From Gemmatimonadota bacterium (GTDB taxonomy: Bacteria; Gemmatimonadota; Gemmatimonadetes; Palauibacterales; Palauibacteraceae), in assembly GCA_039588215.1 (NCBI GenBank), contig JBDHAD010000002.1:2036-66035 (forward strand): DNA of 64,000 bases, read 5' to 3'. The translations under genes were made by a program, and so were the position numbers. The notes under the pieces were generated by a model that was not told the DNA's origin, did no database searches, and saw only the letters and a list, made by a program, of their open reading frames with translations. The first letter of the stretch is position 1, and each line of letters opens with the position of its first letter. Shown one piece after another: positions 36,164-51,876 of the stretch.

Positions 36164-37681
36164 TCAGGAGTTGGGAATGTGTGCGGCCAGGGCCCGCCGA
36201 TACACATCCAGGTACCGTTGGGCGGAGCTCTCCCACCCGAAGTCGCGACTCATGGCCTCGGCCATGTGCTCCTCCCAGGCGTCTGGCTCGCTCCGGTACA
36301 GGTTCGTCCCTCGCGACATGGCGGTGAAAAGCCCATCCGTGGTGTATTCGTCGAACAGAAAGCCGGTCACCTGGTCTTCGATGGTGTCGGCGAGCCCGCC
36401 CACGCGACGTGCCACCGGGATCGTACCGTACCGCTGGGCCCGCATCTGGGTGAGCCCGCACGGCTCGTATTGCGAGGGCATCAAGAGCAGGTCCGCCCCC
36501 GCGAGCAGGCGATGCTCTTTTGGCTCCTGAAAGTCGGTGTCGACGATGACCCGGTCAGGGATCGCGGCCGCGATCTCGCGCAAGGCATGCTCGTACCGCC
36601 CATCCCCGGCACCGAGGAAGATGAACTGCGCCTCCGCACGGTACAGGAGGTCCTCCCCGAGGATCAGGTCGAGACCCTTCTGTTGCACGAGGCGAGCGGT
36701 CATACCGAACAGCGGCATTCGCGGGTACTCCGGGAGACCATATGCCCGCTGCAGGGCCTGCTTGCAGCGAACCTTTCCCGAGAGGTCGAACCTCGAGTAG
36801 GGTGCGGCGATCTCGGGGTCTTTCTCCGTATCCCATACGTCGAGATCGATACCGTTCCGGATCCCGACAAATCGGTCCTGGAGCCCGATGAAAGAGTGGT
36901 GAAGCCCGAAACCGCCGGCCGGGGTCCGGAGCTCGTGTGCGTGGGTCGGACTGACCGTCGTCGCATAATCGCTGAACACGAGCGCGCCCTTGAGCCAGTT
37001 CACGTGCCCGTACCACTCGAGCCAGCGCCAGTGGAACAGCTGTTGGGGGAGCCCCACCTCGGCCAAGACGCGCGGCTCGAAGTGGCCCTGGTACCCTGCG
37101 TTGTGCACGGAGATCACAGCGGCCATCCGGTCAAACTCCGGCTTGCCCGCGAACTTCGTGCGCAGATAGACCGGGGCGAGTGCCGTGTGCCAGTCGTGGG
37201 CATGCACGACCACGGGGACATTCGCCAACTCCGGAAGCACCTGGAGCGCGGCGAGGTTGTAAAAAGCGAACCGCCTCGAGTTGTCTGGATAATCGCCGTT
37301 GTCCCCGTAGATGCCATCGCGACCGAAGTGCTCCTCATTCTCGATGAAGAGAACCCTGGGGTTCTGCGGCGGTCCCTGCGGCTGGTGTACCCTCGCCTCC
37401 TCGAGTCTCGAGCCGACCTGGACGTAATAGGGATCGTGTGCGGGCTCCAGATCGGGATAGGCCTCGCGAACCGAGCGGTACAGCGGCATGAACACCGTGA
37501 CGGGTGTCCCATGAGCCGCCTGGAAGGTGGCGATGCCGCGCACGGCTTCGGCCAGTCCCCCGGTGCGGGCGTACGGCCAGTATTCGGCGACGAGATGTAC
37601 GACCGCCAATTCCTCGGCTGGGCGAGGTTCCGGGATATGCATGGGTCGCTGTGGCTTGGCGATCGTCCTCATGCTCGGCAT
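36164..37681 (-). CDS. glgA: Glycogen/starch synthase (GT5)
   Basis: 505 aa. E.WPYARTGGLAEAV (K/RTGGL motif), HDWHTA, FLGAGD, PSQYEPCGLTQM. Confidence 0.9.
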   Translation of the reverse strand: MPSMRTIAKPQRPMHIPEPRPAEELAVVHLVAEYWPYARTGGLAEAVRGIATFQAAHGTPVTVFMPLYRSVREAYPDLEPAHDPYYVQVGSRLEEARVHQPQGPPQNPRVLFIENEEHFGRDGIYGDNGDYPDNSRRFAFYNLAALQVLPELANVPVVVHAHDWHTALAPVYLRTKFAGKPEFDRMAAVISVHNAGYQGHFEPRVLAEVGLPQQLFHWRWLEWYGHVNWLKGALVFSDYATTVSPTHAHELRTPAGGFGLHHSFIGLQDRFVGIRNGIDLDVWDTEKDPEIAAPYSRFDLSGKVRCKQALQRAYGLPEYPRMPLFGMTARLVQQKGLDLILGEDLLYRAEAQFIFLGAGDGRYEHALREIAAAIPDRVIVDTDFQEPKEHRLLAGADLLLMPSQYEPCGLTQMRAQRYGTIPVARRVGGLADTIEDQVTGFLFDEYTTDGLFTAMSRGTNLYRSEPDAWEEHMAEAMSRDFGWESSAQRYLDVYRRALAAHIPNS

Positions 37682-37734
37682 ACTACCCTGGGCCGCGCGC
37701 TCGCGCGCAGTTCATGTGTCTCGTGGCGCAAGAG

Positions 37735-40257
37735 ATGCGCCGGTCGCCCTTTAACCCCATGTGGCCGAATGAGGTCCGATTGTCGCGACTCGACTCGAAG
37801 TCACTGACCGCGTTGCTTGCGGGGTTGTGCCCTGACCCCTCGGGCGTGCTCGGGGCCTACCGGCTGGAGCCACCGGACGCGGAAGAAGCCGCAGAAGACA
37901 GGTCTTCGCGCCTACCCGCGACCGTCGTGCGGGTGTTCCTCCCTCGTGCTCGTTCCGTGACGTTGCTGTGGATCTCGGCCGAGGCCGGTGACGCCCAGGA
38001 ATCGGCCGGGATCCAAAGTGCCCTAGGGCCCAGGAACCGAACGGGATCGGGACGTGGAGACCCGACTCCCGCAAAGCGCGCGAACGCGTCGGAAAGCGCG
38101 AGGCACATGGAGCGCGTTCACCCCGAGGGTGTCTTCGAGCTGGAGCTGGAGGAGCCGCCTCCCAGGAGCTACCGCATTCGGGTGAGCTGGGAGGGTGGGG
38201 GAGAAAGCGACGTGGATGACCCGTACCGGTTCCTGCCTTCGCTCGAGCCGGCGCAGTTGGCCGCGTTCGGGAAGGGCGAGGAATCCAGGCTACACGGTTT
38301 GCTGGGGGCACATGCGGAGACGCGTGACGAGGTGCGTGGCACTCGCTTCCGAGTGTGGGCGCCGGCAGCCCGGGCGGTGAATCTCATGGGCTCGTTCAAC
38401 GGGTGGGAGGCGCGGACGCACCCGATGTACCCGGTCGGTTCCAGCGGGGTGTGGGAGTTGTTCGTGCCTGGAGTCGGGGAAGGGGCCCGATACAAGTACC
38501 AGATTCGGCCCACGGCCGCGGTCGCGAGATCGATAGCCGAGGAACGGACGGCGGGTGTCAGGCAATCGGAGGCCAGAGGGAGGGCTCGTCGTTCGAAGAC
38601 GACCCGGGCCGCCAGGACGGAGGAGAGACGGCCACTGGCCCTTGAAAAGTCGGACCCGTTCGGATTCGATCACGAAGTCCGGCCGCGCTCCGCATCCGTG
38701 GTATGCGATCTAGATGGTCACTCATGGAGTGATGAGACCTGGCTCGAGCGGCGCCTCAACGACACCGGGAGCCACGCTCCGGTCTCGATCTACGAGGTCC
38801 ACCTCGGTTCCTGGCGTCGGCGAGAAGATGGCGAGTGGCCCGGCTACCGGGACTTGGCGCGGGACCTCCTCCCGTACGTGAAGGAGCTGGGCTTCACGCA
38901 CCTGGAGCTTCTCCCGATCACGGAGCATCCGCACGATCCGAGCTGGGGGTATCAGGCGCTCGGGTATTTCGCCCCCACGTCGAGGTACGGCTCCCCCGAG
39001 GACTTTAAGGCGTTCGTGGATGCCGCACACGGGCTCGGGCTGGGCGTGATTCTGGATTGGGTGCCCGCCCACTTTCCGCTAGACGCCCATGGACTCAGCC
39101 GCTTCGATGGCACGCATCTGTACGACCATCCGGACCCGATGCGTGGCATCCACCCGGACTGGGGGACGGCGATCTTCGACTACGGCAAGCCGGAAGTCGT
39201 GTCGTTCCTCATTTCGAGCGCCCGGTTCTGGCTCGAGGAGTACCACCTGGACGGGCTCCGCGTGGATGCCGTCGCATCCATGCTCTATCTGGACTACTCG
39301 CGCGAGAAAGGGGAGTGGCTCCCGAACGAGTTGGGGGGACGGGAGAACCTGGAGGCGGTGGCGTTTCTCCGCCGGCTGACAGATGCGATTCACGACGCGT
39401 TCCCGGACGCGCTGTTGTTCGCCGAGGAGAGCACGGCATGGCCACGCGTCTCGGGACCGACGGGGGAGGGGGGGCTCGGATTCGACATGAAGTGGAACAT
39501 GGGGTGGATGAACGACACCCTGAGTTATTTCGAGGCGGATCCGTTCGTCCGCCATGCGGCGCACGAGAAGCTCACGTTCTCGATCCACTACGCCCACAAC
39601 GAGCAATATCTACTTCCCCTCTCACACGACGAAGTAGTCCACCTGAAGCACTCGCTCCTCTCGAAGATGCCCGGAGGGTACGAAGAGAAGTTCGCCAATC
39701 TTCGGGCCCTGTTCGCCTACATGTGGGCGCACCCCGGCAAGAAGCTCCTGTTCATGGGTGGCGAGCTGGGTCAGTGGTCCGAGTGGGACGAGAACGCGGA
39801 GCTGGACTGGAGCCTGCTGAACTTTCCGCAACACCGTGGCATCCAGCGCTTCGTACAGGTTCTGAACCGGCTGTACACGGAGGAACCCGCGCTGCACGCG
39901 TTGGACTTCTCGTCTGACGGCTTCGAGTGGATCGACGTGCACGACAGCGCCCGCAGCGTCGTCGCCTTCGTGCGCTGGAGTCAGGAATGGGAGGACTTCG
40001 TGCTGGTGGTGGCGAACTTCTCAGGTACCCGATGGCGCGATTATCGGCTGGGGGCACCGTCGCCGGGTGAATACGTGGCGATACTCGATAGCGACTCGCC
40101 GGAGTTCCTCGGGCGCTCGGACCCGGTGGCCTTGCCGCGCTTCACTGCCCGGGAGGAGGAGTGGCAAGGGCGCTTGGCCTCGCTGACCCTGGATCTGGCC
40201 CCCCTCTCCTGCCTGTACCTGAAGCGCGCGAGTGACACCGACCCCTCTGCGCCGTAG
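37735..40257 (+). CDS. glgB: 1,4-alpha-glucan branching enzyme (GH13_9) with unusual N-terminal-region insertions
   Basis: GH13 regions DWVPAHF, GLRVDAVASM, FAEEST, LSHDEVVH. Start candidates are ATG 37714, 37735 and 37759. The ORF-track start at 37504 would overlap divergent glgA. Confidence 0.9.
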   Translation: MRRSPFNPMWPNEVRLSRLDSKSLTALLAGLCPDPSGVLGAYRLEPPDAEEAAEDRSSRLPATVVRVFLPRARSVTLLWISAEAGDAQESAGIQSALGPRNRTGSGRGDPTPAKRANASESARHMERVHPEGVFELELEEPPPRSYRIRVSWEGGGESDVDDPYRFLPSLEPAQLAAFGKGEESRLHGLLGAHAETRDEVRGTRFRVWAPAARAVNLMGSFNGWEARTHPMYPVGSSGVWELFVPGVGEGARYKYQIRPTAAVARSIAEERTAGVRQSEARGRARRSKTTRAARTEERRPLALEKSDPFGFDHEVRPRSASVVCDLDGHSWSDETWLERRLNDTGSHAPVSIYEVHLGSWRRREDGEWPGYRDLARDLLPYVKELGFTHLELLPITEHPHDPSWGYQALGYFAPTSRYGSPEDFKAFVDAAHGLGLGVILDWVPAHFPLDAHGLSRFDGTHLYDHPDPMRGIHPDWGTAIFDYGKPEVVSFLISSARFWLEEYHLDGLRVDAVASMLYLDYSREKGEWLPNELGGRENLEAVAFLRRLTDAIHDAFPDALLFAEESTAWPRVSGPTGEGGLGFDMKWNMGWMNDTLSYFEADPFVRHAAHEKLTFSIHYAHNEQYLLPLSHDEVVHLKHSLLSKMPGGYEEKFANLRALFAYMWAHPGKKLLFMGGELGQWSEWDENAELDWSLLNFPQHRGIQRFVQVLNRLYTEEPALHALDFSSDGFEWIDVHDSARSVVAFVRWSQEWEDFVLVVANFSGTRWRDYRLGAPSPGEYVAILDSDSPEFLGRSDPVALPRFTAREEEWQGRLASLTLDLAPLSCLYLKRASDTDPSAP

Positions 40258-40317
40258 CGGGCCAGCTCATACCGCAGCGCGCTTACCACTCTCCGGCGCC
40301 CGACCTCGATGGCGGGG

Positions 40318-41535
40318 CTACCCCGCGTACAATTGGAGTCGCGTCGAAAACAGATCGGCGATCTCGGTGAGCGTCTGGAGGTCGGGGTGCCGCAGGAAGA
40401 CCATCCCGTCGGAGATGAGGGTGGCTTGCCAGTTCCTCCGGGGCGCGCCGATCGGCAACAAATCCAGCTCACACACGTTTGAGCCGTACTCCTGCATGAG
40501 GGGTGCGAGCCCCTCGATCCGCTGGATGTGACCTCGCCCTTGCGCGCGCTTCACGACCCAGCACGCGTTGTACTTTCGCTCGACGGGTTGCGACCAGCGC
40601 TTGTGGACCACGGCCTCGGCCCAACCCCGGTACGTGTCCAGATCGGAGGCGTAATTGATCAGGTCCACGGTTCGCACGCCCGGCGGCCGGGCCGCGATCT
40701 CGCCGAACACGGCCTCCCCGTCCGGCTTCCTGTACCACTCCATGTGTGTATAACCGGTTCGGAAGCCCAACGCCTGCAACACGGCGAACCCCATCTCCCG
40801 GCCCGAGCGCAGTTCCTCGGCTTCCACGTCGCGTAGCGCGAAGGTCTGCGGACTGATCCACTCGTTCTCCTTGGCGATCAGCGCGCGGGGGTCGTAGCGA
40901 CAGATGTTGTGGTGCTGCACCTGGCCGTCGATGCATATCGTGTCGAACGTCATGTCGTCGCCCTCGACGAACTCCTCGACGCTGACCTGAGGGACGTGGC
41001 GCAGCGCCGGAAGTACGCTCTCCAATTCCTCCTGGGAGTCGATTCGATACGTATCGGCTGAGCCGGCGCCGGCGATCGGCTTCACGATCAGAGGGAACCC
41101 GATTCGCTCGGCTGCGGCTCGGCACTCCACCACGGTCGTCGCCCGGGCATGGTGGGGAGTGCGGATGCCCGCGGCGTCCAGGACCTGCTTCATGATCTCC
41201 TTGTCACGGAAGGGAATCGTCTCCGCCACGGTCATCCCCGGCAGATTGAGCATCTCGCGCATCCGCCCCGCCAAGATCATGTAGGGCTCCCATAGGCATT
41301 CGACTCGATCGATCGGACGGTGCCTCGCGTACTCCCGGACCTGGGTAAGGATGGCATCCTCGTCTACGAGCGACCGCACCTGGATGTGGTCGGCGAGGCC
41401 GTCGCGAGCCGCCTCGGGCAGGGCGGCGGCCGGCTGGTCTCCGAGTCCGATCACTTCCGCGCCGACCTCGGCCAGCGCGCGAGTGAAATACTGCATCTCT
41501 GCCGGATAACCGGGTGAGATCATGAGGATGTTCAT
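40318..41535 (-). CDS. ATP-grasp ligase, paralogue A1 (stand-alone carboxylate-amine ligase-like)
   Basis: 405 aa. GFPLIVKPIAGAGSADTY, VSVEEFVEGDD, THMEWYRK..GEAVFGEIAARPPG, DLDTYRGWAEAV. Clearly paralogous to A2 and A3. Confidence 0.85.
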   Translation of the reverse strand: MNILMISPGYPAEMQYFTRALAEVGAEVIGLGDQPAAALPEAARDGLADHIQVRSLVDEDAILTQVREYARHRPIDRVECLWEPYMILAGRMREMLNLPGMTVAETIPFRDKEIMKQVLDAAGIRTPHHARATTVVECRAAAERIGFPLIVKPIAGAGSADTYRIDSQEELESVLPALRHVPQVSVEEFVEGDDMTFDTICIDGQVQHHNICRYDPRALIAKENEWISPQTFALRDVEAEELRSGREMGFAVLQALGFRTGYTHMEWYRKPDGEAVFGEIAARPPGVRTVDLINYASDLDTYRGWAEAVVHKRWSQPVERKYNACWVVKRAQGRGHIQRIEGLAPLMQEYGSNVCELDLLPIGAPRRNWQATLISDGMVFLRHPDLQTLTEIADLFSTRLQLYAG

Positions 41536-41597
41536 CGCGTCTGTCTATGCTCCCAATATGTTGGTATACAGGGCTTTGTATGCATGAATCTCGTGTT

Positions 41598-42818
41598 TTA
41601 CTCTAACTCGATGCGTATACGGGTGACGATGCGTTGGAGCGCGTCCTCGACGACGCGGGTCTCCGCATGTCTCACGATGATGTAGCCCTCACCCTCGTAG
41701 GTTCCCGAGGGCGGCTGTCCCGGGTGGGGCAGCTTCGCCTCGACCACGAGCGGGCCGAGCTCGCGGCGGAGCTCCTCCACGCCGTGGACTCGCGCGACCC
41801 GTCCCCGTCCCTGACCCCGCAGATAGGCGGCCCCGGCGGCGTACGGTCGCGGGCGTGGCTCGAACTCCTCCCGGATCATTAGCCGTGCCCAGGCCGCGTA
41901 CAGATCGAAATCATGCGCCCAGGAGATCAGGGTCGTGAACTGTGCGCCCGGAGGGCGCGCGCCGACCTCCGAGATCGCGACGGAGCCGTCCGGCCGAAGA
42001 AACCACTCCATATGGCTCAGACCCGTGCCCAGGCCCAGTGCGGCGAGCGCGCCACCGGCCACCCGCCGGATCTCTTCATAGCGGGGCGAGTCGACCTCTC
42101 GGGGCAGCAGCACGCACCACTGGATCCAGGGCTCACGCAACACCTCCAGCGGGGACGGTGCGTAGTGGTTGATGGAGTGCCACACGATCCTCCCGCCCAG
42201 GCTGATGCTATCGAAGGAGTGTTCCTCTCCCGTCACGAATTCCTCGACGAGCGTGGGTCGTTCGGCGGACGGGCGGTGCGTCTCGAGGCTCGCTCTGAGT
42301 TGCTCCATCGTTTCGACCCGGAACGTCCCGCGGGCACCGGAACCGGCCGGTGGTTTGACCACGAGGGGGAAACCGACGTCAGCCGCGAAGCTCTCGGCGT
42401 CCTGTCTGGATCCGGCCAGTACATGTCGAGCACACGGAAGGCCGGCACGCCGCAGCACGTCTTTCATCCGAGACTTGTCGCGGAAGTTACGCCCGGTCTC
42501 GGCCCCCATCCCTGGAATCCCGAAGCGATCGCGTAACTCGCCGAGCGGTACCTGAAGCTCCTCGAGCGCCCCGAGCAAGCGGTCCACCTCGCCCAGCTCT
42601 CCCTGCATGCGGACGAGAGCGTCATGAATCGTATCCGGGTCGAGAGCATCCCGGACCTGCGCGTGGCTGGCCAGTGCACCGCGGAGCTCGGCAGGCAGCT
42701 TCTCCGCGGGATCCTGACTGATCAGGCCCAGCCGAGCGCCTGGGGTCGACGCGGCCGCGCTCACGAAGCGCAGCGTGGTAGGCAGGAAGAACGGTGCGAC
42801 GAAGACGACGTTTGGCAT
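41598..42818 (-). CDS. ATP-grasp ligase, paralogue A2
   Basis: Start moved to ATG 42818 (MPNVVFVAPFF, collinear with the A1 and A3 N-termini). GFPLVVKPPAGSGARGTF, LVEEFVTGEE, SHMEWFLRPDGSVAISEVGARPPG, DFDLYAAWARL. The ORF-track 702-aa version extends antisense into A3. Confidence 0.85.
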   Translation of the reverse strand: MPNVVFVAPFFLPTTLRFVSAAASTPGARLGLISQDPAEKLPAELRGALASHAQVRDALDPDTIHDALVRMQGELGEVDRLLGALEELQVPLGELRDRFGIPGMGAETGRNFRDKSRMKDVLRRAGLPCARHVLAGSRQDAESFAADVGFPLVVKPPAGSGARGTFRVETMEQLRASLETHRPSAERPTLVEEFVTGEEHSFDSISLGGRIVWHSINHYAPSPLEVLREPWIQWCVLLPREVDSPRYEEIRRVAGGALAALGLGTGLSHMEWFLRPDGSVAISEVGARPPGAQFTTLISWAHDFDLYAAWARLMIREEFEPRPRPYAAGAAYLRGQGRGRVARVHGVEELRRELGPLVVEAKLPHPGQPPSGTYEGEGYIIVRHAETRVVEDALQRIVTRIRIELE

Positions 42819-43061
42819 GGCCTCGGGATCAGTTCTTGCGCCCAGTGTGAATCCGGCACCCGCGGGAACCGGTATGTGGAACCCGCGGGCGCGGGGTGCC
42901 GCCGGGGAGGGCCGGTTCGTCGACGTCGTGCCGACGCCACACGGCGCCCCCTGGCGTTCGAGCACGCCCACGCTACAATGGACAGCCCTGAAAATGAAGG
43001 AGGCGGCGTGGCGGGCGGGCTGTGGAGGCGACCCACCCACGGCGCAGAGGTGTTCAAAACG

Positions 43062-44285
43062 ATGCATGTTGTCTTCATAGAGCCGCGGTTTCCCGACAAC
43101 CAAAAGGACTTCGTCCGTGGGCTGCGTGAGGTCGGCGCGGAGGTGTCGGCGATCGGCGAGGCGCCGGTAAGCGCACTCGGCGAGGAGCTGCGCGGATGGC
43201 TGACGCGCTACGAACAGGTCCGCTCGGTGTGCGACGAGGACGACCTCATGCGCGTCGTGCGCTGGATTCAGGACCAGAGGTGGGTGGACCGGCTGGAGGC
43301 CACGGTCGAGGCTCACATTCTCCCGACGGCTCGCGTGCGAAAGGCGTGCGGGATTCCCGGAACGTCGGTACGCACGGCATACCTTTGCCGCGACAAGCCG
43401 GCCATGAAAGACGTGTTGAGGCGCGCGGGGATCCCGTGCGCTCAGTCGCTCGGAAGTGGCTCGGTCGAGGAGATACAGGCATTCGCGAGCGAGGTAGGCT
43501 ATCCGCTCGTCGTGAAGCCGCGCGCCGGAGCAGGCGCGTCGGGCACGTACCGCGTCGATGATGATGAGCAGCTCCGGGGTGTCCTGTCGCAGGTCGGCGT
43601 GGGGCGTGGGGCGGACGTGGCCGTGGAAGAGTTCATCGAAGGACACGAGGCGTTCTACGACACGGTCTCGATCGGTGGTCAGGTCGTCCACGACTTCATT
43701 ACGCACTACTACCCGAACGTCCTGGAGGCGATGAGGACGCGCTGGATCTCACCGCAGTTCATCGCTACCAACAGGATCGACAGCGCCGAGGGATACGGGG
43801 CAGTACGCGAGATGGGGCGCAAGGTGATCGAAGCGCTCGGGGTCGAGACGTCCGCGACTCACATGGAGTGGTTCTTCGGTGAGAGAGGCCTGAAGTTCTC
43901 CGAGATCGGGTGCCGGCCCCCAGGCGTGAGGGCCTGGGACTTGTACTGCGCCGCGAACGACATCGACCTGTACCGCGAGTGGGCGATGGCCGTCACCTAC
44001 GATCGGCCCGACCAGAGACCGTCCCGGCGCTTCTCGGCCGGGATCATCACGCTTCGGCCGGATCGGGACGGGCGCATCATGCGGTACGAGGGGCTGGACC
44101 AGATCGAGCAACGCTTCGGCGAGTGGATTATCGATATGCATGTGCCGCCGCCTGGCACTCCCACGCAGCCGGTCGAGGCCGGATACATGGCCAATGCTTG
44201 GATCCGAATGCGCCACCCCGACTACGACGCCCTCCGCGCCATGCTCGGCACGGTCGGAGAGACCGTACAGGTGCGGGCCGAGTGA
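43062..44285 (+). CDS. ATP-grasp ligase, paralogue A3
   Basis: MHVVFIEPRF is collinear with A1 and A2. GYPLVVKPRAGAGASGTY, AVEEFIEGHE, THMEWFFGERGLKFSEIGCRPPG, DIDLYREWAMAV. An alternative in-frame GTG at 43008 lies 4 nt after AAGGAGG. Confidence 0.85.
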   Translation: MHVVFIEPRFPDNQKDFVRGLREVGAEVSAIGEAPVSALGEELRGWLTRYEQVRSVCDEDDLMRVVRWIQDQRWVDRLEATVEAHILPTARVRKACGIPGTSVRTAYLCRDKPAMKDVLRRAGIPCAQSLGSGSVEEIQAFASEVGYPLVVKPRAGAGASGTYRVDDDEQLRGVLSQVGVGRGADVAVEEFIEGHEAFYDTVSIGGQVVHDFITHYYPNVLEAMRTRWISPQFIATNRIDSAEGYGAVREMGRKVIEALGVETSATHMEWFFGERGLKFSEIGCRPPGVRAWDLYCAANDIDLYREWAMAVTYDRPDQRPSRRFSAGIITLRPDRDGRIMRYEGLDQIEQRFGEWIIDMHVPPPGTPTQPVEAGYMANAWIRMRHPDYDALRAMLGTVGETVQVRAE

Positions 44286-45310
44286 GCCTGGGGCGCCGCG
44301 CCCTCCGCGTGATCCTCCTGGGTCCCCAGACGCCGGTCGCGACGGTGGGCGCCGTACATGCCGACCTCGTGAAGGACGGCACTCTGGGGGCCGGAGATGT
44401 GGTGCCGACGATCACCGCGGGCTGGCAGGAACGGGAAACGGAGGATGCGGAGCTCGACCTCGAGCTGGGCGGACGCTCCCGAAACCTGCGACTCTACGAG
44501 CGTGCGTACGAGGTGATCGAGGAGGACCCGGAGCTCGCCCGGGCGCACCGGGCGATCCAGGACCGGCTCAAGCTCTTGCGCCGCGCCTACAATCTGAGGC
44601 TCCGTCATCTGATCGAAGCCTGGCGGGAGATTGGACGGCTCGATGGGGACGCCGAGTTGGTCTCAGCGGAGCGGGCCGCGGCTCTCGAATCGATCCGGTC
44701 TTTGGATGGGCGACATCTCGAAAGGCTTGGTGAGTTGCGGACGGAGTTCGATCGCGTCCACTCGCCGCAGACGCGGAGATCCGTGCGGAGTCAACGCGAC
44801 GAGATCGTCGACGTACTCGAGGATGCTCCCGTCGTCGCGATCGCGGGCGGGCATATCGCCACCCTCCTGAACCGACTCCGCCTGTTCGGCCTGCGTGAAG
44901 CTGTGGCGGACAAGACGCTGGTAGCGTGGTCCGCGGGGGCGATGGTGATGGGGTCTCGCATCGTGCTGTTTCACGATCGACCGCCACAGGGACCCGGCAA
45001 TGCCGAGGCGTTCGAGAACGGGCTCGAGCTGTACCCGGACCTGATCCCGTTCCCGCACGCGTCACGACGCCTCCGTCTGGACGACCCCGTCCGCACCGGA
45101 CTCCTCGCGGGCCGCTTCGCGCCGAGCGCGTGCGCGCTCCTGGAGCCGGAGACACGCCTCGAGTGGGGTTCTGACGGGTGGCGAGCGGTCTCTGCCGGAG
45201 ACCGACTGACCCGTGACGGTGACCGCGTATCGTTGGATGGCTGGGGGAACGACGAGTCAAGAACGCGCGTGGCGAGGCGCGGCAGCTCCAAGCGAAGGGT
45301 GCGAGGGTGA
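44282..45310 (+). CDS. Peptidase-S51-like (type-1 glutamine-amidotransferase-like fold) protein with long helical insertion
   Basis: GTG 44282 overlaps the A3 stop (GTGA). VVAIAGGHIATLLNRLRLFGLREAV..KTLVAWSAGAMVMG matches the S51 pattern GG(N/H)...LL......G........G.SAGA. About 130 aa of Arg/Glu/Leu-rich helical sequence lie between the first strand (RVILLGPQ) and this block. Confidence 0.65.
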   Translation: MSLGRRALRVILLGPQTPVATVGAVHADLVKDGTLGAGDVVPTITAGWQERETEDAELDLELGGRSRNLRLYERAYEVIEEDPELARAHRAIQDRLKLLRRAYNLRLRHLIEAWREIGRLDGDAELVSAERAAALESIRSLDGRHLERLGELRTEFDRVHSPQTRRSVRSQRDEIVDVLEDAPVVAIAGGHIATLLNRLRLFGLREAVADKTLVAWSAGAMVMGSRIVLFHDRPPQGPGNAEAFENGLELYPDLIPFPHASRRLRLDDPVRTGLLAGRFAPSACALLEPETRLEWGSDGWRAVSAGDRLTRDGDRVSLDGWGNDESRTRVARRGSSKRRVRG

Positions 45311-46512
45311 ACGGCGAGGCTCGTGAGTGGTTCTTGAGCCCCACCCTCGGCCACGGCTCCGAGGAGCCGATGCCCGATTCGCCGACCATCCAGGAACTCG
45401 CGCAGGCGGACGAGCTGGATGCGGGTCGGATCGACGCATTCCTGGAAGGGCACGCTTTTCCCATCGCCGAGCCACCCAACTACACGTTCGTATACCGTGG
45501 TTCCGCCGATGCGGTGCATCTCCGTCACTGGATCTACGGGCTGCCGGCATCTCAACCCTTCCGGCGTCTGGGGCGGTCAGACCTTTGGTATCGAACCGTC
45601 GAGCTGCCCGACGACTCCCGGGTGGAGTACAAGCTCGAGATCCGAGGGGGCGGGCATGTGCGGTGGATCGAGGACCCGTTGAACCCCCACAGTGCCCGGG
45701 ATCCATTTGGCGCGAACTCGGTGGTGACCGCGCGGGGGTATGAGGTTCCGGAGTGGACTCGATTCGATCCCGACGCCAGACCGGGCACTCTGGAGGAACG
45801 CACGGTGGACAGCCGCGAGCTCGGTGAAACGCGGCGCGTCAGCGTGTACCTGCCCGCCCGCTTCCGGGTGCAACGGCGCTACCCGCTCCTCGTGGTCCAT
45901 GACGGTGGGGACTACCTGGAGTACGCGAGCCTGCGGACCGTGTTGGACAACCTGATCCACCGTCTCGAGATTCCGTCGGTGCTCGCTGCGCTCGTACACC
46001 CCGGAGCGCGCATGCGGGAGTACGCTGCCCTCGAAGCCCACTCGCGGTTTCTTTCGCGCGAGTTAGTCCCGGCGCTGGAAGCGGAGTTCCCGCTGCTCGG
46101 CACACCGGAGGGCAGAGGCATCCTCGGAGCGAGTCTCGGTGCCGTCGCCTCGCTCGCCGCCGCGACGCACGAGCCGAAGTTCTGGGGAAAGCTCCTGCTT
46201 CAATCGGGCTCGTTCGCGTTCACGGATATCGGCGATAACCCCCGCGGCCCCGTCTTCGACCCGATAGTCGAGTTCATGAACCATTACCGGTCGAAGCCCG
46301 CGGCCGTGGCGGGGCAGGTCTTCATGACGGCCGGCGTGTACGAGTCGCTGGTGTACGAGAACCGCTCACTGGTTCCCGTCTTGAGATCGACCGGCATGCA
46401 GGTCCGGTACGTCGAAGCGCGAGACGGTCACAACTGGGAGAACTGGCGTGACCGCCTCCGCGAAGGGCTCTCCTGGCTATTCCCCGGACCCCTATGGATG
46501 GTGTACGAGTGA
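45307..46512 (+). CDS. Esterase-family serine hydrolase (PF00756-like) with N-terminal beta-sandwich domain
   Basis: GTG 45307 overlaps the upstream stop (GTGA). ATG 45370 is an alternative start. PLLVVHDGGDY, nucleophile elbow ILGASLGAVASL, RDGHNWENW (His). The N-terminal YTFVYRG..VHLRHW......LWYRTVELPDDSRVEYKLEI resembles the Ig/E-set domain of enterochelin-esterase-like proteins. Confidence 0.8.
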   Translation: MNGEAREWFLSPTLGHGSEEPMPDSPTIQELAQADELDAGRIDAFLEGHAFPIAEPPNYTFVYRGSADAVHLRHWIYGLPASQPFRRLGRSDLWYRTVELPDDSRVEYKLEIRGGGHVRWIEDPLNPHSARDPFGANSVVTARGYEVPEWTRFDPDARPGTLEERTVDSRELGETRRVSVYLPARFRVQRRYPLLVVHDGGDYLEYASLRTVLDNLIHRLEIPSVLAALVHPGARMREYAALEAHSRFLSRELVPALEAEFPLLGTPEGRGILGASLGAVASLAAATHEPKFWGKLLLQSGSFAFTDIGDNPRGPVFDPIVEFMNHYRSKPAAVAGQVFMTAGVYESLVYENRSLVPVLRSTGMQVRYVEARDGHNWENWRDRLREGLSWLFPGPLWMVYE

Positions 46513-46557
46513 GTCGAGACGAACTGCACGCACGGGCCCATCCGAGAGGTCTCATCC

Positions 46558-47796
46558 TTGGCTGAGGTCACGCGCAGGATCGGGCTTTCGCTCGGGGCAG
46601 ATGTGTGCTGGCCGATCTGCTACCAGGAGATCCTGCGGCGACTCGACCTCGCGATCCCCTGGCAGGGCGACACGCTGCGATTCGAGGTGGAGCGCGTCAC
46701 GATCGAGCCGTTCGACCTGCGGCAGCCGTGCCGCTATGACGTGGTGATCGATCGCCTCACGCACTGGTATCACACCACGCGAGAATGGATCAAGAAGGCG
46801 GTGATGCTCGATGGGCTGTACGTGTTCAACAACCCGTGGAGTGTCCAGTCGATGGAGAAGCAGACCACGTACTCCGCGATGATGCGACTGGGTCTCCCGA
46901 TCCCCGACACATGGCTCGTCCCCCCCAAGTCGTACGACCCGAAGGAAGACCTTCAAATCACGCTCGAGCGGTACGCACGCATGTTCGACCTGGGAGAGAT
47001 CGGCCGCTCCCTCGGCTATCCGCTGTTCATGAAGCCGTACGACGGTGGCGGGTGGAAGGGAGTTTCGCGGATCCCGGACGAACAGGCGCTGCGCGCCGCA
47101 TACGAGGAGAGCGGGGTCTTCGTCATGCACCTTCAGGGTGCGGTCGAGCCTCACGACCTGTTCGTACGCTGCATCGGTTTGGGTCCTCAGACCCACATGA
47201 TAAGGTACGATCCGGAGGCGCCGCTTCACGATCGCTACACGATGAGCCGGGATTTTCTTGAAGAAGAGGACGCGGTGCTGCTCCGCGATCTCACGCTCAC
47301 GATCAACACCTTCTTCGGGTGGGATTTCAACTCGTGCGAAGCGCTCCGGGGCGGGGGTACGTGGCACCCGATCGATTTTGCCAATCCGTGTCCGGACTCG
47401 CAGGTCACCTCGCTTCATTATCACTTTCCGTGGCTGATCGTGGCCAACATTCGATGGTCCATTTTCTGCGCGGCCACCAAGCGCCCCATGCGGCCGAACT
47501 TGGATTGGCAGCCCTATTTCGACGCGTGTGAGGAGGGGATGACGCTGGGGGAGCGCTTGCGCGCCTGCGCGACGATTGCCTACGGGCGGCTCGAGGCGGA
47601 CCGTTTCGGGGAGTTCTGCGCAACACACCTCGCGCAACTGGATCAGGTAGCTGATGAGTTCTTCGGCTCCGACATGGCCCGCGATGCCGTCCACCAAAAG
47701 GTGCGTGCGTTGTATCCTGCTGACGAGGTGGAGGAGTTCACGGAGCTGTTCTGGCAGCGGATCCAGAAAGCGCGGGCGGACGGGATCGAGACTTAG
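46558..47796 (+). CDS. Divergent ATP-grasp-like protein (RimK / glutathione-synthetase-like)
   Basis: TTG 46558 has GAGAGG 8 nt upstream. GYPLFMKPYDGGGWKGVSRI (ATP-grasp K-loop), VFVMHLQ, HPIDFANPCPD (metal-site-like E/D-x-N). 412 aa. Not collinear with A1-A3. Confidence 0.7.
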   Translation: MAEVTRRIGLSLGADVCWPICYQEILRRLDLAIPWQGDTLRFEVERVTIEPFDLRQPCRYDVVIDRLTHWYHTTREWIKKAVMLDGLYVFNNPWSVQSMEKQTTYSAMMRLGLPIPDTWLVPPKSYDPKEDLQITLERYARMFDLGEIGRSLGYPLFMKPYDGGGWKGVSRIPDEQALRAAYEESGVFVMHLQGAVEPHDLFVRCIGLGPQTHMIRYDPEAPLHDRYTMSRDFLEEEDAVLLRDLTLTINTFFGWDFNSCEALRGGGTWHPIDFANPCPDSQVTSLHYHFPWLIVANIRWSIFCAATKRPMRPNLDWQPYFDACEEGMTLGERLRACATIAYGRLEADRFGEFCATHLAQLDQVADEFFGSDMARDAVHQKVRALYPADEVEEFTELFWQRIQKARADGIET

Positions 47797-47855
47797 TAGA
47801 TCCTCGAGGGGCCTCGAGCGGTCTGTATTACTGACGAGCGCGTAGAAGGGAATCG

Positions 47856-48614
47856 ATGAAGGCAAGCACGAGTTGGCACTCGGGACATCTGGATCAGCGC
47901 GTCTCCGTGGTTCGGTGGGGTGAGATCGGGACGCCGGTCCTCATCTTCCCAACGGCGGGCGGCGACGCGGAGGAGATCGAGCGGTTCCTGGTCATCGATA
48001 CGCTCGCCGAGTACATGGAAGCGGGGCGCATCAAGATCTACTCGTGCGATAGCGTGGCGGGACGCGTGATGCTCGGAAAGGAAGGGTCGCCCGAGCACCG
48101 GATGCGCGTGATGAACCGCTTTCAAAACTTCGTCTACCACGAGCTCGTGCCGTCAATCCGGGAGGACTGTCACACCGAGGATGTCGGCATCATCGCGGCC
48201 GGTGCGTCGATCGGTGCCTTCAACGCGCTCGCCGCCCTGTGCCGTTACCCCGACGCCTTCACACACGCGTTGTGTATGAGTGGAACGTACGACCTGCAGC
48301 GTTTTCTCGAGGCGGGGCTGACGGAGGACTTCTACTTCTCGTCACCGCTTCACTATCTGCCCGACCTCGAAGGGCCACTGCTCGAGATGCTGCGGACGCG
48401 TTACGTGTTGCTCGCGTCGGGCCGGGGAGAGGCGGAGGACATCACGGAATCGTGGCGCGTCGCGGCGCTCCTGGGACGCAAGGGCGTGCCGAATCGACTG
48501 GACGATTGGGGGGAGGATTGGCCCCACGATTGGCCCACGTGGCGCAACATGCTGTACCGCTATCTGGATGAGCTCGTGCCTGCCGTCGAATCAGCGACGG
48601 AGGCCGGCCCCTAG
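47856..48614 (+). CDS. Esterase-family serine hydrolase (PF00756-like), short form
   Basis: ATG 47856 has GAAGGG upstream. VLIFPTAGGD, nucleophile elbow IIAAGASIGAFNAL, C-terminal DWPHDWPTW (His). Its stop overlaps the convergent glgP stop (CTAG at 48611-48614). Confidence 0.75.
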   Translation: MKASTSWHSGHLDQRVSVVRWGEIGTPVLIFPTAGGDAEEIERFLVIDTLAEYMEAGRIKIYSCDSVAGRVMLGKEGSPEHRMRVMNRFQNFVYHELVPSIREDCHTEDVGIIAAGASIGAFNALAALCRYPDAFTHALCMSGTYDLQRFLEAGLTEDFYFSSPLHYLPDLEGPLLEMLRTRYVLLASGRGEAEDITESWRVAALLGRKGVPNRLDDWGEDWPHDWPTWRNMLYRYLDELVPAVESATEAGP

Positions 48615-50815
48615 ACGGTCGGTGGGTCGTCACCGGGGCTCACTCCGGTCAGCCCCGGCACGTAGTAATCCCGTGCGTAATCCTGCACCATCCGCCGAGC
48701 CGTGAACCGCTGGGCCGCAACGACCAGCGCGGCTTTCATGCGTTGGATCCAGCCCACGGGTATTCCAGTGCGATCTCGCTCGTAGAAGAGCGGGATCACC
48801 TCCTCCTCCAGCAAACCGTAGAGGTGCTCGGCGTCTAGCGCGTCCGTTTCCTCGGTGGTTTGCTCGTCCTCCGCGTCGCGCGGCGCGGGTGGAATCGACC
48901 ACCCGTTCATCCCGGTGAACCCCTCCTCCCACCACCCGTCAGTGGTGCCCAATTGTGGCACGCCGTTCAGTGCTGCCTTCATGCCGCTGGTCCCGCTCGC
49001 CTCGCGGGGTACGCGGGGGAGGTTGACCCACAGGTCCACCCCCTCGACGAGGCGGTGCGCGACGTGGAGCCCGTAGTCTTCCAGGAATGCGATGCGTCCC
49101 TCGAAGCGCTGATCACGAGTGTGGGAATAGACCGCTTGCAGAACCTCCTTGCCACGCTCGTCACGTGGGTGGGCCTTACCCGCGAATATGAGCTGAACCG
49201 GTCGCCAGGGGTCCGAGAGCAAACGCAGGAAGCGTTCGACGTCGCTGAAGATGAGATCGGCGCGCTTGTAGGCCGCGAAGCGACGAGCAAAGCCGATCGT
49301 GAGAGGGAAGGGGCTCAGGAGCGTGCCGGCACCAACGAGGTGGGCCGCTTCCTGCCAGTGATCGCGCCAGTGGCGCCGAGCCTCTTCGCGCATGAAATCG
49401 ATGAGCCCGAGCTTCAGTCGCTGGTGAACGGTCCAAAGCCCGTGGTCGGGGATGTCGAAGATCCCCTCCCACATCTCCGGTTCCTCGAGACGATGTCCCC
49501 AGTCCTTTCCGAGGTACCTGTCCAACAGAGCCATTACGTCGTTGTTCATCCAGTTGGCGAGGTGGACCCCGTTCGTCACGTGGCCGATCGGGATGTCATC
49601 GACCGCGCGTCCCTTCCACAGGCTCTGCCAGATATCACGGGTGACCTTGCCGTGGCGCTCGGACACGGCGTTCACACGCCGCGAGAGGCGGATGCCGGCC
49701 GCCGTCATGTGGAAGCGACCGCCGTCGAGCTCCGGGTGTTCGCCCAGCTTGAGCAGCTCGTCCTGGTCACCGAGCTCGTCCCAATAGGAGCCCGCCCATT
49801 CCCGGATTTGGGCTTGCGTGAAGATGTCGTGGCCAGCCGGCACCGGCGTGTGGGTCGTGAACACGCTGTTCGCTCTGACACTCTCGACGGCCTCATCGAG
49901 GGGCACGCCCTGCTTCACGAGCTGCCGAACCCTCTCGACCAGCATGAAAGCGGCGTGCCCCTCGTTGGCGTGCCAAGCGCGTGGCTCGATTCCGAGAGCC
50001 TTGAGGACGCGCACGCCCCCGATGCCCAGGAGCCCTTCCTGGCGGAGCCGGAGATCGGCCCCTCCGGCGTACAGCTTGTGGGACAGCTCCCGATCCGCGC
50101 CCTCGTTCTCGTCGAGGTCGGTGTCCAGCAGGTAGATCGAGACGCGACCCACACGCACCCGCCAGGCCCCGACATGGACCTTGCGGCCCGAGCTGACGAT
50201 CGATGTCAGGTACGGCTCGCCGTCCGGTCCGGAGAGTGGCTCGAGCGCGGTCCGCGCGGGGTCGAACGTCTCGTCTCCGTCCTCCTGCCAGCCGTCCAAC
50301 CGGAGGGCCTGGTCGAAGTATCCCCGAGTGTATAACAGACCGACCCCGACCAGGGGCACGCCGAGATCCGATGCCGCCTTGCAGTGGTCCCCGGCCAACA
50401 CCCCCAGCCCGCCGGAGTAGATGGGGACGGAGTTGTGCAATCCGAACTCCGCGCAGAAATACGCGATCGGCTTGTCCAGGTGCTCGGGGTAGCGCTGCGC
50501 GAACCAGGTGTGCTCCGAGGTCGACTCGTGCTCGATGGTTGCGATGACCGCTTCGTAGCGCTCGAGAAAACGTCCGTCTGCTGCCAGGCCGGCGAGCCGC
50601 TCGGGCTTCACCCGCAGGAGGAGCTCCACCGGGTTATGGCGGGTCATGCGCCACAAAGGGAGATCGATCGACCGAAACAGGTCGCGTGCGTCGCGGTCCC
50701 ACGTCCAGGTGAGATTCATCGCGACGTTCCACAGCTTGTCGATACGCTTCGGGATCTCGGGTCGCTCGCGTGGGATCGTCGCTGCGAGCCTCGACCGCGT
50801 CGTCGATTTCGCCAT
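48611..50815 (-). CDS. glgP: Alpha-glucan (glycogen/maltodextrin) phosphorylase, GT35 'alpha-glucan family' type
   Basis: Start moved to ATG 50815 (GGGAGGGG directly upstream). NLTWTWD, YFCAEFG, YSGGLGVLAGDH, EASGTSGMKAALNG (PLP-lysine motif). Confidence 0.9.
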   Translation of the reverse strand: MAKSTTRSRLAATIPRERPEIPKRIDKLWNVAMNLTWTWDRDARDLFRSIDLPLWRMTRHNPVELLLRVKPERLAGLAADGRFLERYEAVIATIEHESTSEHTWFAQRYPEHLDKPIAYFCAEFGLHNSVPIYSGGLGVLAGDHCKAASDLGVPLVGVGLLYTRGYFDQALRLDGWQEDGDETFDPARTALEPLSGPDGEPYLTSIVSSGRKVHVGAWRVRVGRVSIYLLDTDLDENEGADRELSHKLYAGGADLRLRQEGLLGIGGVRVLKALGIEPRAWHANEGHAAFMLVERVRQLVKQGVPLDEAVESVRANSVFTTHTPVPAGHDIFTQAQIREWAGSYWDELGDQDELLKLGEHPELDGGRFHMTAAGIRLSRRVNAVSERHGKVTRDIWQSLWKGRAVDDIPIGHVTNGVHLANWMNNDVMALLDRYLGKDWGHRLEEPEMWEGIFDIPDHGLWTVHQRLKLGLIDFMREEARRHWRDHWQEAAHLVGAGTLLSPFPLTIGFARRFAAYKRADLIFSDVERFLRLLSDPWRPVQLIFAGKAHPRDERGKEVLQAVYSHTRDQRFEGRIAFLEDYGLHVAHRLVEGVDLWVNLPRVPREASGTSGMKAALNGVPQLGTTDGWWEEGFTGMNGWSIPPAPRDAEDEQTTEETDALDAEHLYGLLEEEVIPLFYERDRTGIPVGWIQRMKAALVVAAQRFTARRMVQDYARDYYVPGLTGVSPGDDPPTV

Positions 50816-50924
50816 TCCCCTCCCATCCATGCCTGGCGGCCGGACCCGGGTCGTCACGACCGGGTCACAACCGGGCCGGAAACTACAAGGTTTGCACACT
50901 CATGCCAGGTGGGGAGCAAGAAGA

Positions 50925-50949
50925 AGGCCCCGCCGGAGTGGCGGGGCCT
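50925..50949 (-). terminator. Rho-independent-type terminator after the ECF-sigma operon
   Basis: AGGCCCCGCC-ggagt-GGCGGGGCCT is a perfect 10-bp stem. On the minus strand it is followed by TCTTCTT. It lies 54 nt downstream of the gene ending at 51003. Confidence 0.55.
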
Positions 50950-51002
50950 CGGTCGTCAGCGGGACCTACGTCGTATGCCGCGATGACGTCGACCGCGATG
51001 AA

Positions 51003-51701
51003 CTACCTCTTGTGCATGACCGGGCTGAGCTGGAAGCCGGTGGCGTTCCAGACCAGGGATCCTATGGAGGCGGTCGTGGCGATCTCCAGCAGGATAGCCT
51101 CCGTTGCTCCGCCGACCACTTCGACCCGGTCCATCTGGATCTTGTACCCGGACTGTTCGGCGCTCGGGATCCTGATCTCGTACGTTCCCGGGTCCAGGTC
51201 CTGTCCACCGACATTGATCGTCTGCGCGAGCGTCAACGTCGAGGTCGAGAAGTAGAGCCGCACCTGGTTATAGAAGCCGGCGACCAGCGAGCCACTTGCG
51301 ACTTCAACCCCGCCGGTGGTGGGGAGGCTCATGAGGTCGATGGGGGTTTCGGTTCCGAGGTCGAGAGTGACCCAGCCTCCACCCGTCCCGGCGCCGCTCT
51401 CTCCGCCTTCGCTTCCCTCACCTTCGCCCGTCCCATCACCTTCAGCTTCGCTTCCGTCACCGGTCCGGTGGATGTCGACGCGCGTCACGGCGAGGTCGAT
51501 CGATCCGACCGCTGCCACCGGCACGTCACCGAGGCTGAGGCGCAGCCCGGCAGGCACGGTTGAAGCGGCGACCGACCCGTCACCGGCGAGCAGGATGCTG
51601 GCCTGTCCAGTCTCCACTCCGGTGGTGTCGCTGCATGCGCTGAAGACCGCGGCCCCGGTCAAGAGCAGCACGGCGGCTAGAGTCTGGTATCGTCTGAGCA
51701 T
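51003..51701 (-). CDS. DUF4382-like lipoprotein
   Basis: ATG 51701 (MLRRYQTLAAVLLLTGAAVFSAC, a lipobox). WVTLDLG..PIDLMSL...LVAGFYNQVRLYF...IRIPSAEQSGYKI matches the DUF4382 pattern. Contains an acidic Gly/Glu/Asp-rich linker. Confidence 0.75.
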   Translation of the reverse strand: MLRRYQTLAAVLLLTGAAVFSACSDTTGVETGQASILLAGDGSVAASTVPAGLRLSLGDVPVAAVGSIDLAVTRVDIHRTGDGSEAEGDGTGEGEGSEGGESGAGTGGGWVTLDLGTETPIDLMSLPTTGGVEVASGSLVAGFYNQVRLYFSTSTLTLAQTINVGGQDLDPGTYEIRIPSAEQSGYKIQMDRVEVVGGATEAILLEIATTASIGSLVWNATGFQLSPVMHKR

Positions 51702-51876
51702 TTTTCCACCTCTGCCAAATGGCGGGTGGGGGATCCCAAATGCGCTCCCCCAAACGTTCGGTTCGGAGGATGTCGTGGCAAGAGGCATACCACAGGTATC
51801 GGGCGTTCAGAATGACCGGGTGAAGGGCGAAACGCCCGGAGCGGGGTCCTTGCCGCTGCCCAGGATCGTGAAAAGT

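Follow-up and report, generated by a model that had tools for sequence, protein, structure and literature searches.

In a stretch of 64,000 nucleotides from a Gemmatimonadota bacterium (GenBank assembly GCA_039588215.1, contig JBDHAD010000002.1, positions 2,036 to 66,035; the whole stretch is referred to below as the window), seven genes situated between the glycogen genes glgB and glgP make up a single conserved module, which is cytoplasmic and consists of four ATP-grasp ligases and three serine hydrolases. The classes of these enzymes, their conservation, their intact active-site motifs and their operon-level coupling to glgA and glgB are established. The module looks like an undescribed pathway which adds and removes amino-acid-like units alongside the glycogen store or directly on it. 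The explanation placed first here, tentatively and at well short of even confidence, is that the ligases attach acidic acyl or amino-acyl units by ester bonds to the alpha-glucan made by GlgA and GlgB and extend them there, and that the esterases and the peptidase remove them.

Seven genes conserved as one module

A first-pass annotation of the window, made by a model from the letters alone, had pointed to seven open reading frames (ORFs), namely three paralogous ATP-grasp proteins (A1, A2 and A3), an S51-like peptidase, a fourth ATP-grasp-like protein (G4) and two esterases (Est1 and Est2), and had read them as a module of several ligases with dedicated hydrolases. All seven ORFs are present and intact at the positions given below, and the reading as a module was borne out by the Pfam classes of the proteins, by Foldseek and by co-occurrence across phyla. 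The flanks had also been named correctly: glgB ends at 40257, the stop of glgP is at 48611, and a GH57 gene and glgA lie upstream (Pfam, TIGR02095). The features of the region are the following.

34641..36140, minus strand: GH57-family glucan enzyme with DUF3536, listed as context (Pfam Glyco_hydro_57 1.3e-19, DUF3536 3.4e-45)
36164..37681, minus strand: glgA, ADP-glucose-type glycogen synthase (TIGR02095, 474.9 bits against a cut-off of 328)
38107..40257, plus strand: glgB, branching enzyme (Pfam CBM_48, GlgB_N, Alpha-amylase, Alpha-amylase_C)
40318..41535, minus strand: A1, ATP-grasp ligase of the L-amino-acid-ligase type (Pfam ATPgrasp_N, ATP-grasp, Dala_Dala_lig_C)
41598..42818, minus strand: A2, paralogous ATP-grasp ligase (Pfam ATP-grasp 5.7e-11, weak LAL_C2)
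42951..42979, plus strand: promoter-like block CTGGCGTT.GAGC...TAC(A/T)AT in the divergent A2/A3 spacer (alignment of related spacers)
43062..44285, plus strand: A3, paralogous ATP-grasp ligase (Pfam ATP-grasp, CPSase_L_D2)
44282..45310, plus strand: S51-fold serine hydrolase, peptidase E- or cyanophycinase-like (Pfam Peptidase_S51 1.8e-7)
45307..46512, probable start 45370, plus strand: Est1, Fes-like alpha/beta serine esterase with an N-terminal E-set domain (PF00756 1.3e-20)
46558..47796, plus strand: G4, divergent ATP-grasp ligase (no Pfam family; AlphaFold model and Foldseek)
47856..48614, plus strand: Est2, short alpha/beta serine esterase (PF00756 3e-10)
48611..50815, minus strand: glgP-type alpha-glucan phosphorylase (Pfam DUF3417 4.6e-33, Phosphorylase 1.8e-25)

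In a genome scan at least 590 stretches were confirmed, and 80 loci from among them were retained and inspected over 10 kb on each side of G4; nearly all of these loci are from metagenome-assembled genomes. Synteny among related genomes had been proposed as a check on the module, and the gene set was found in syntenic order in the 80 loci, in at least seven phyla, which is not a chance association. The carriers are Myxococcota, Eisenbacteria, Binatia, Gemmatimonadota, Planctomycetota, Acidobacteriota, and alpha- and gammaproteobacteria. A near-constant core of S51-Est1-G4-Est2 runs through these loci: Est2, the most constant partner of G4, follows it directly in 64 of the 76 loci whose DNA extends far enough, Est1 stands before G4 in 58 of 74, and S51 is present in 53 of 65.

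Between phyla, G4 is 61-77% identical, A3 60-77%, A1 46-75% and the S51 protein 36-54%. Judging from these identities, G4 and A3 are under unusually strong constraint; a uniformly recent transfer cannot explain their high identity, because the S51 protein (36-54%) and GlgA (33-39% between the window's phylum and the others) are far more diverged.

Coupling to the glycogen genes

The first-pass annotation had described the block as inserted in a glycogen locus. This picture did not survive: the linkage to glycogen genes is conserved and tight and is found in several arrangements, and the association was thus reached in more than one way. Because of this linkage, the glycogen genes are best read as part of the biology of the system and not as a passive landing site.

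The glycosyltransferase linked to the cluster is a bona fide GlgA (TIGR02095 scores of 518 and 521 bits in loci L008 and L043, against the cut-off of 328). Such a true glgA lies directly upstream of A3, on the same strand and with gaps of -15 to 114 bp, in 20 of the 40 A3 genes with enough upstream sequence, and A3 is the A-type member most often preceded by it. Independent gene calls bring out several layouts. In locus L084, A2, A1 and glgB run in one direction, while glgA, A3, S51, Est1, G4, Est2, a GCS2-type ligase gene with CBS domains (GCS2-CBS) and an AstE-like gene run in the other, with 4-bp overlaps at A1/glgB, glgA/A3, A3/S51 and G4/Est2. Locus L085 has the order S51-Est1-G4-Est2-glgA, with a 1-bp overlap between Est2 and glgA, followed by a toxin-antitoxin insertion and then A3; the insertion comprises PhdYeFM/PIN and MazE/PIN pairs (13485-14113 and 15473-16137) and a transposase-associated gene between glgA and A3. 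In Binatia and Planctomycetota loci glgB is likewise found directly downstream of A1, and in Steroidobacteraceae A1 stands beside glgA-A3, with malQ alongside.

Among the 37 loci with full 10-kb flanks, 23 carry a glycogen gene within 10 kb of G4; by our estimate, a random 21-kb stretch would carry one in a few per cent of cases. Cluster-linked GlgA proteins from five lineages are 48-64% identical to each other and 33-39% identical to the GlgA of Gemmatimonadota; the window's lineage has therefore combined the module, which it carries between glgB and glgP, with a glgA from another clade.

In the window itself, A2-A1 and A3 are divergently transcribed, as had been noticed, with a spacer of 243 bp. 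Translational coupling of A3 to the S51 gene and of the latter to Est1 had been proposed from two GTGA overlaps; both overlaps (44282 and 45307) are in the sequence, but the second probably does not mark a start, since Est1 more likely begins at ATG 45370 than at 45307. A Shine-Dalgarno-like GAGGAG precedes this ATG, and in the related contig L083 (A3 95% identical to that of the window) a 380-aa Est1 is called after a 59-bp gap. The intergenic gaps in the block measure 45-62 bp. At the other end, glgP converges on Est2, the stop codons overlapping by 4 bp, and it occupies the same position in the Palauibacter loci and in L083. Palauibacter loci have a glgA at the corresponding place that shares 70% identity with the glgA of the window, and the 717-aa glgB called in L083 shares 88% identity with the window's glgB over 717 aa. 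The G+C content is about 65% along the whole window, with no compositional break at the seven-gene block.

Within the A2/A3 spacer, the block at 42951..42979 aligns in the window, in L083 and in five Palauibacter loci (L013, L015, L016, L020 and L026), the rest of the spacer being unaligned, and it is kept across Gemmatimonadota families. It is probably the promoter of the A3 operon or an operator, as judged from this alignment. A consensus promoter scan did not call the block, and the promoter and terminator scan of the region stayed at background level. The spacer holds only unconserved ORFs of 31-37 aa, and Rfam gave no match at E<=1 to a riboswitch or other known RNA in 33000-52000.

Several other observations concern the surroundings of the module. 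The glgB ORF is open from 37504, about 200 codons before its likely start at ATG 38107, so that it reaches into the 5' end of the oppositely oriented glgA. In the closest relative, L083, a 717-aa GlgB is called; the part upstream of 38107 is probably not translated. A class I/II aminotransferase gene (33442-34623, plus strand) adjoins glgA in the window and in L083 and is not found beside the module in other phyla. The GH57+DUF3536 gene lies between this aminotransferase gene and glgA in the window and is missing at the same place in L083, a difference that we read as a recent gain or loss inside the glycogen locus. A DUF4382 lipoprotein-like gene is located at 51003-51788, and an ECF-type sigma factor gene, whose counterpart in L083 has Sigma70_r2/r4, lies with two small genes downstream of glgP (51877-53433, minus strand), likely as a sigma/anti-sigma unit. 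Long antisense ORFs recur opposite G4 (46552-47865, minus strand, 437 aa), Est1, Est2, S51 and the A genes in most loci and were grouped as families in an all-against-all comparison; these 'shadow' ORFs are artefacts of high G+C content and strong conservation of the sense gene, not genes.

The ligases, the hydrolases and their partners

A1, A2 and A3 had been described as collinear paralogues, and they are: 32-39% identical to each other over ~407 aa, with E values of 4e-65 to 4e-90. The suggested L-amino-acid-ligase type was also recovered, the best solved relatives of A2 being RizA (4wd3; E 1.7e-19, residues 46-360) and BL00235 (3vot; 9e-15), with BacD at 7e-8. ATPgrasp_N scored above the Pfam cut-off in A1, and the three proteins otherwise gave generic ATP-grasp matches; LAL_C2 was matched among them only by A2, at 19.8 bits and below the cut-off of 29.4, and precomputed LAL_C2 matches exist in a few A3 orthologues. 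Each of the three has its own orthologues, 46-77% identical across phyla; because this is well over the 32-39% between the paralogues, the triplication is judged to be ancient.

Housekeeping enzymes, among which the first-pass annotation had allowed that the three might be found, are ruled out by the curated NCBIfam cut-offs, below which all scores fall far. For the A-type ligases these were (in bits) 37-39 against 502 for purT, 25-35 against 318 for purK, 36-40 against 246 for Ddl, at most 32 against 740 for accC (biotin carboxylase) and 28-34 against 1027 for the carbamoyl-phosphate synthase (CPSase) large subunit. The cphA models gave 35-42 against 850-877, matching the ATP-grasp strand region only, and BacD gave 29-36 against 850.

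The fourth ligase, G4, had been described as a non-collinear ATP-grasp protein. This held: it has only the ATP-binding strand and loop in common with A1-A3 (E 1e-4 to 8e-8), and no Pfam family matches it. Its AlphaFold model (pLDDT 80.6, pTM 0.83) was identified by Foldseek as an ATP-grasp protein, the closest structures being ArgX (3vpc, 0.66), LysX and RimK by TM-score (0.55-0.66) and Ddl by E value (1.8e-8); the sequence likeness to Ddl is limited to the ATP-binding strand and loop. In this model the core is RimK/LysX/Ddl-like, and a C-terminal helical domain of about 120 residues has no structural match. At least 5,723 G4 homologues are present in a large protein collection, the best 120 of which are all at least 69% identical; a G4 profile matched 1,519 of 1.8 billion 50%-identity representatives at E<=0.001, many of them fragments. 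A search for Rosetta-stone fusions among long representatives gave no extra Pfam domain, except for one Est1-G4 read-through. A record labelled uncultured Bacillaceae (L056) has the alphaproteobacterial order G4-Est2-A3 and is 68% identical to G4; the taxonomic label of this bin may be wrong.

Two models for a partner of G4 were tried and rejected. A RiPP/graspetide or carrier-protein system would need a precursor, and no precursor-like conserved small ORF is found in the gaps or the spacer. The C-terminal tail of GlgA was considered as a RimK-like target, and the C-termini of cluster-linked GlgA are ordinary and non-acidic.

The S51 protein scored 31.5 bits with Pfam Peptidase_S51, above the cut-off of 23.9, and 16.6 bits with the PepE equivalog model, for which the cut-off is 156. 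Its AlphaFold model (pLDDT 90.5) matched 6nqc, 6a4r, 7c9b and 3en0 with a Foldseek probability of 1.00, the E values being 9e-8 for 6nqc, 1e-6 for PepE (6a4r) and 2e-6 for cyanophycinase (3en0). Solved S51 structures contain no equivalent of its helical hairpin insert of about 110 residues (residues ~71-179). All 35 sequences compared keep the nucleophile, Ser217 (AWSAGAM), and likewise H231-D232 (H231 in LFHD) and E242. The window protein has the His which aligns with 'IPHAS' (the 'PH' motif) of Deinococcus PepE, but 8 of the 35 have Y, S, D or N in its place. Since the canonical His is replaced in these sequences while H231 is invariant, the alignment suggests that the catalytic arrangement is shifted.

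In both esterases the GxSxG motif and a C-terminal H.W..WR are kept in more than 60 orthologues each, specifically GAS.GA, HDG and H.W..WRD in 63 Est1 sequences and G.SIGAF and HDW.TWR in 61 Est2 sequences. Est2 is weakly like IroE and Ag85. Est1 matched PF00756 with 74.7 bits (E 1.3e-20) and the Fes structure 2b20 with 7e-13; the window protein scored 22-26 bits with Enterochelin_N against a cut-off of 27.1, and 96.6 with the Fes equivalog PRK10439 against 222. Its N-terminal domain matched Enterochelin_N in 17 of 18 members, with sub-threshold matches to CBM_20 in 11 (best 0.0027) and to CBM_48 in 4 (best 0.0017). The best solved match to a profile of this domain is the glucoamylase starch-binding domain 1ac0 (E 0.0084): the invariant W71 and Y85-K86, together with D100-P101 (invariant, at least 90%), align with W563, Y577-K578 and D593-P594 of 1ac0 (numbering from chain index).

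Other loci carry further partners. A GCS2-type carboxylate-amine ligase with two CBS domains follows Est2 in 22 of the 80 loci, in Myxococcota, Eisenbacteria, Binatia and Planctomycetota (for example, L084 12051-14862), often accompanied by an AstE/AspA-like hydrolase, and is possibly an energy-sensing fifth ligase of the system. An AstE/AspA-like amidohydrolase is found in 8 loci, and an FGase-like amidohydrolase lies upstream of glgA in 7; none of these three is present in the 64-kb window. Characterised S51 members cut aspartyl peptides. Together with the S51 family, these accessory partners point to amides of the Glu/Asp type.

Some neighbours were seen in a single locus each. They include a Na+:dicarboxylate symporter inside the cluster (L012 8540-9844), TctABC beside it (L085 1058-4206), phytochelatin-synthase-like and DJ-1/PfpI genes (L001 16159-19072) and OsmC (L081 7264-7683), and hint at acidic substrates or at thiol/stress chemistry. 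Inserts between Est1 and G4 or after Est2 (kinase-FGE, DUF4056, SDF transporter, phytochelatin-synthase-like, DJ-1 and DUF4419) were rejected as parts of the system, because each occurs in one locus only.

Possible products and comparison with known systems

In the explanation placed first, GlgA and GlgB would make the alpha-glucan, and one or more of the ATP-grasp ligases would activate the carboxylate of an acidic amino acid, or of a di- or tricarboxylic acid, as an acyl-phosphate (ATP being converted to ADP and Pi). The acyl group would then be moved to a glucan hydroxyl to give an ester, and the remaining paralogues would lengthen the acyl unit by amide bonds; three orthologous lineages and G4 imply three or four bond specificities. 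In turnover, the Fes/CE1-like esterases, of which Est1 has a predicted CBM20/48-like N-domain, would cleave the ester, and the S51 hydrolase would break down the freed aspartyl- or glutamyl-type peptide, assisted in other phyla by the AstE/AspA-like and FGase-like amidohydrolases. The net outcome would be decorated glycogen, either charged or nitrogen-bearing. The chemistry, the acyl donor and the attachment to the glucan are all things that we infer.

This explanation gives every enzyme class a role. It accounts for the fact that glucan-building genes, and not only regulators, are embedded in the operons, and for the two constant PF00756 esterases, which a pure peptide pathway does not need. 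It is consistent with the starch-binding-like profile match of the Est1 N-domain, for which the CBM signals are sub-threshold. ATP-grasp enzymes form esters as well as amides, as the D-Ala-D-lactate ligase VanA and the graspetide ligases do.

A number of points weigh against it. We know of no precedent for an ATP-grasp enzyme that acylates a polysaccharide. By their sequence, A1-A3 resemble ligases which join free amino acids, and the S51, GCS2, AstE-like and FGase-like partners are of kinds usually met in the metabolism of small peptides. The N-domain of Est1 matches Enterochelin_N better than the sub-threshold CBM families, and glucan binding is not known for the Enterochelin_N family. In 14 of the 37 full loci, and in L081, neither a glg gene nor an A-type ligase is found within 10 kb of the core, and the alphaproteobacterial variants (Est1-G4-Est2-A3) show no glg neighbour. 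The linkage could also mean co-regulation only.

The first-pass annotation had suggested a nitrogen or compatible-solute reserve, which is one among several candidate readings. A parallel reserve is almost as likely as decoration of glycogen, and we regard it as a serious, still tentative, candidate. The product would be a separate cyanophycin-like poly- or oligo-amide, possibly partly ester-linked and probably rich in Asp or Glu, which the S51 hydrolase and the esterases depolymerise, and operons would be shared with glgA and glgB solely owing to the same laying-down conditions. This is in line with the closeness of A1-A3 to the stand-alone L-amino-acid ligases RizA, BL00235 and BacD, with the match of the S51 fold, including its invariant Ser nucleophile, to peptidase E and cyanophycinase, and with adjacent synthase and depolymerase genes, which is the cphA/cphB pattern. 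The GCS2+CBS amidoligase and the N-acyl-Glu/Asp amidohydrolase-like genes (AstE/AspA, FGase) in Myxococcota, Eisenbacteria, Binatia and Planctomycetota clusters also fit such a polymer, as does the core standing apart from glg genes in some genomes. However, the ligases have no Mur-ligase-like domain and no CphA architecture, and their cphA scores are far under cut-off; in a pure polyamide the two constant esterases would have no role; and the translational coupling to glgA/glgB, seen in three arrangements, is tighter than mere co-regulation predicts. The cph and pha pathways are not known to share operons with glg genes. Glycogen usually builds up when nitrogen is limiting; a polymer rich in nitrogen would then be counter-productive.

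A soluble product is unlikely, though still a real contender: a short peptide or a conjugate of an organic acid and an amino acid (such as an osmolyte, a low-molecular-weight thiol or a metabolic effector), whose level follows glycogen flux and which the hydrolases recycle. Ligases of the L-amino-acid type typically make di- to oligopeptides, PF00756 includes S-formylglutathione hydrolases, and the 22 loci with GCS2, which is related to gamma-Glu-Cys ligase, and an energy-sensing CBS pair after Est2 would agree with such a product, as would the phytochelatin-synthase-like, DJ-1/PfpI, OsmC, Na+:dicarboxylate symporter and TctABC genes. These last are confined to one locus each, however, and GCS2-CBS is missing from the window. 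Three or four hydrolases are excessive for one small molecule, both the RimK/ArgX-like fold of G4 and its extreme degree of conservation suggest that its partner is a macromolecule, and the module has no conserved exporter, regulator or riboswitch.

Such a partner could be a protein. G4, perhaps with A1-A3, would then add amino acids to a protein C-terminus or to side chains, the target possibly being a glycogen-granule protein and the hydrolases serving as erasers. The top TM-score matches of G4 are ArgX, LysX and RimK, and its very high conservation across phyla is what a conserved protein partner would lead one to expect. We nevertheless consider this improbable: no small conserved ORF that might be a RimK/LysX-type carrier, precursor or target gene is found in or beside the cluster, its gaps and 243-bp spacer included, the GlgA C-termini linked to it are non-acidic, G4 scores under the RimK and LysX cut-offs, and four ligases with two esterases are hard to fit. 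That the genes are ordinary housekeeping enzymes (PurK/PurT, Ddl, biotin carboxylase, carbamoyl-phosphate synthase, Fes) adjacent by chance is scarcely credible, even if some source annotations name A3 homologues 'GAR transformylase' or 'carbamoylphosphate synthase large subunit', given scores far under cut-off with all curated models and synteny across phyla with paralogue-specific orthology. An anti-phage defence system was rejected as well, no PADLOC model matching any of the seven proteins.

No carbon reserve is more widespread among bacteria than glycogen, whose gene set is taken to be complete. The module places several uncharacterised enzymes in translational coupling with glgA and glgB in many lineages from soil, sediment, marine settings and sponges; they are more strongly conserved than the glycogen enzymes themselves and represent a large unnamed part of storage metabolism. 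If glycogen is modified, the view of its structure, charge and nitrogen content in bacteria would change, and a new type of ATP-grasp reaction would be added. The boldest form of this idea, that bacteria of at least seven phyla covalently decorate glycogen to obtain a hybrid carbon/nitrogen (or charged) storage polymer by the first ATP-grasp acylation of a polysaccharide, is doubtful. If the product is a separate polymer or peptide, the module would represent a new cyanophycin-like reserve, or a new peptide-ligase family of biotechnological interest. G4, with at least 5,700 homologues and no Pfam family, deserves a family definition.

The gene combination had been put forward as not belonging to a described pathway, and full-text literature searches found no description of it; a 2009 survey of amidoligase neighbourhoods, which was outside those searches, might list part of it. 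In that survey (Mol Biosyst 5:1636, as cited in PMC4431377), Iyer, Abhiman, Burroughs and Aravind reportedly predicted that ATP-grasp and GCS2-type ligases with peptidases make storage peptides and metabolites. No Rfam element, PADLOC model or curated protein family names the module. By the defining tests it is none of CphA, Fes, RimK/LysX, the graspetide systems or the housekeeping ATP-grasp families, and it agrees with L-amino-acid ligases, S51 and PF00756 at the fold or superfamily level only.

A GlgA-type alpha-glucan that is esterified with short acids is known from the mycobacterial MGLP pathway (GlgA-like Rv3032 and a GH57 enzyme). That pathway uses acyl-CoA-type transferases and methyltransferases, has no ATP-grasp ligases or S51 hydrolases, and is found in other phyla. 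Est1 shares with Fes, IroD and IroE, and with CE1 esterases that have CBM48-like N-domains, an E-set N-domain and, after it, a PF00756 domain whose nucleophile lies in a GxSxG motif; it differs in scoring under the Fes cut-off, in being cytoplasmic and in having ligases and glycogen enzymes as partners, and no siderophore genes are found near the module.

With RimK, LysX, ArgX and the D-Ala-D-Ala ligases, G4 shares the core fold and the ATP-binding strand and loop (FMKPYDGGGWKG versus PLFVKPANQGSSVGV). It scores 20.7 against a cut-off of 143 and 22.2 against 276 with the RimK and LysX family models, and is set apart from all four by the lack of a Pfam family, by the extra C-terminal helical domain and by forming a tight, isolated family. 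A1-A3 have in common with the L-amino-acid ligases RizA, BL00235 and BacD/YwfE a size of ~405 aa and a three-domain ATP-grasp layout, and these ligases are their best matches among solved structures. Identity to them is low, the BacD model is far under cut-off, and A1-A3 form three ancient orthologous lineages across phyla, outside antibiotic clusters.

The closest overall likeness is to cyanophycin metabolism (CphA and CphB), which also combines ribosome-independent ATP-grasp ligation with an S51-fold hydrolase, has synthesis and breakdown genes side by side, and is cytoplasmic and connected to a reserve. The module lacks the Mur-ligase M domain and the N domain, its ligases being proteins of 405-412 aa, compared with ~870-900 aa for CphA, and being four separate proteins of two very different types. 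Its S51 protein has the ~110-residue insert and a canonical His that is replaced in 8 of 35 sequences, and two esterases and embedded glgA/glgB genes are added. Taken together, the module resembles in its workings the other pairs of non-ribosomal amidoligases and hydrolases, with cyanophycin as the nearest of them.

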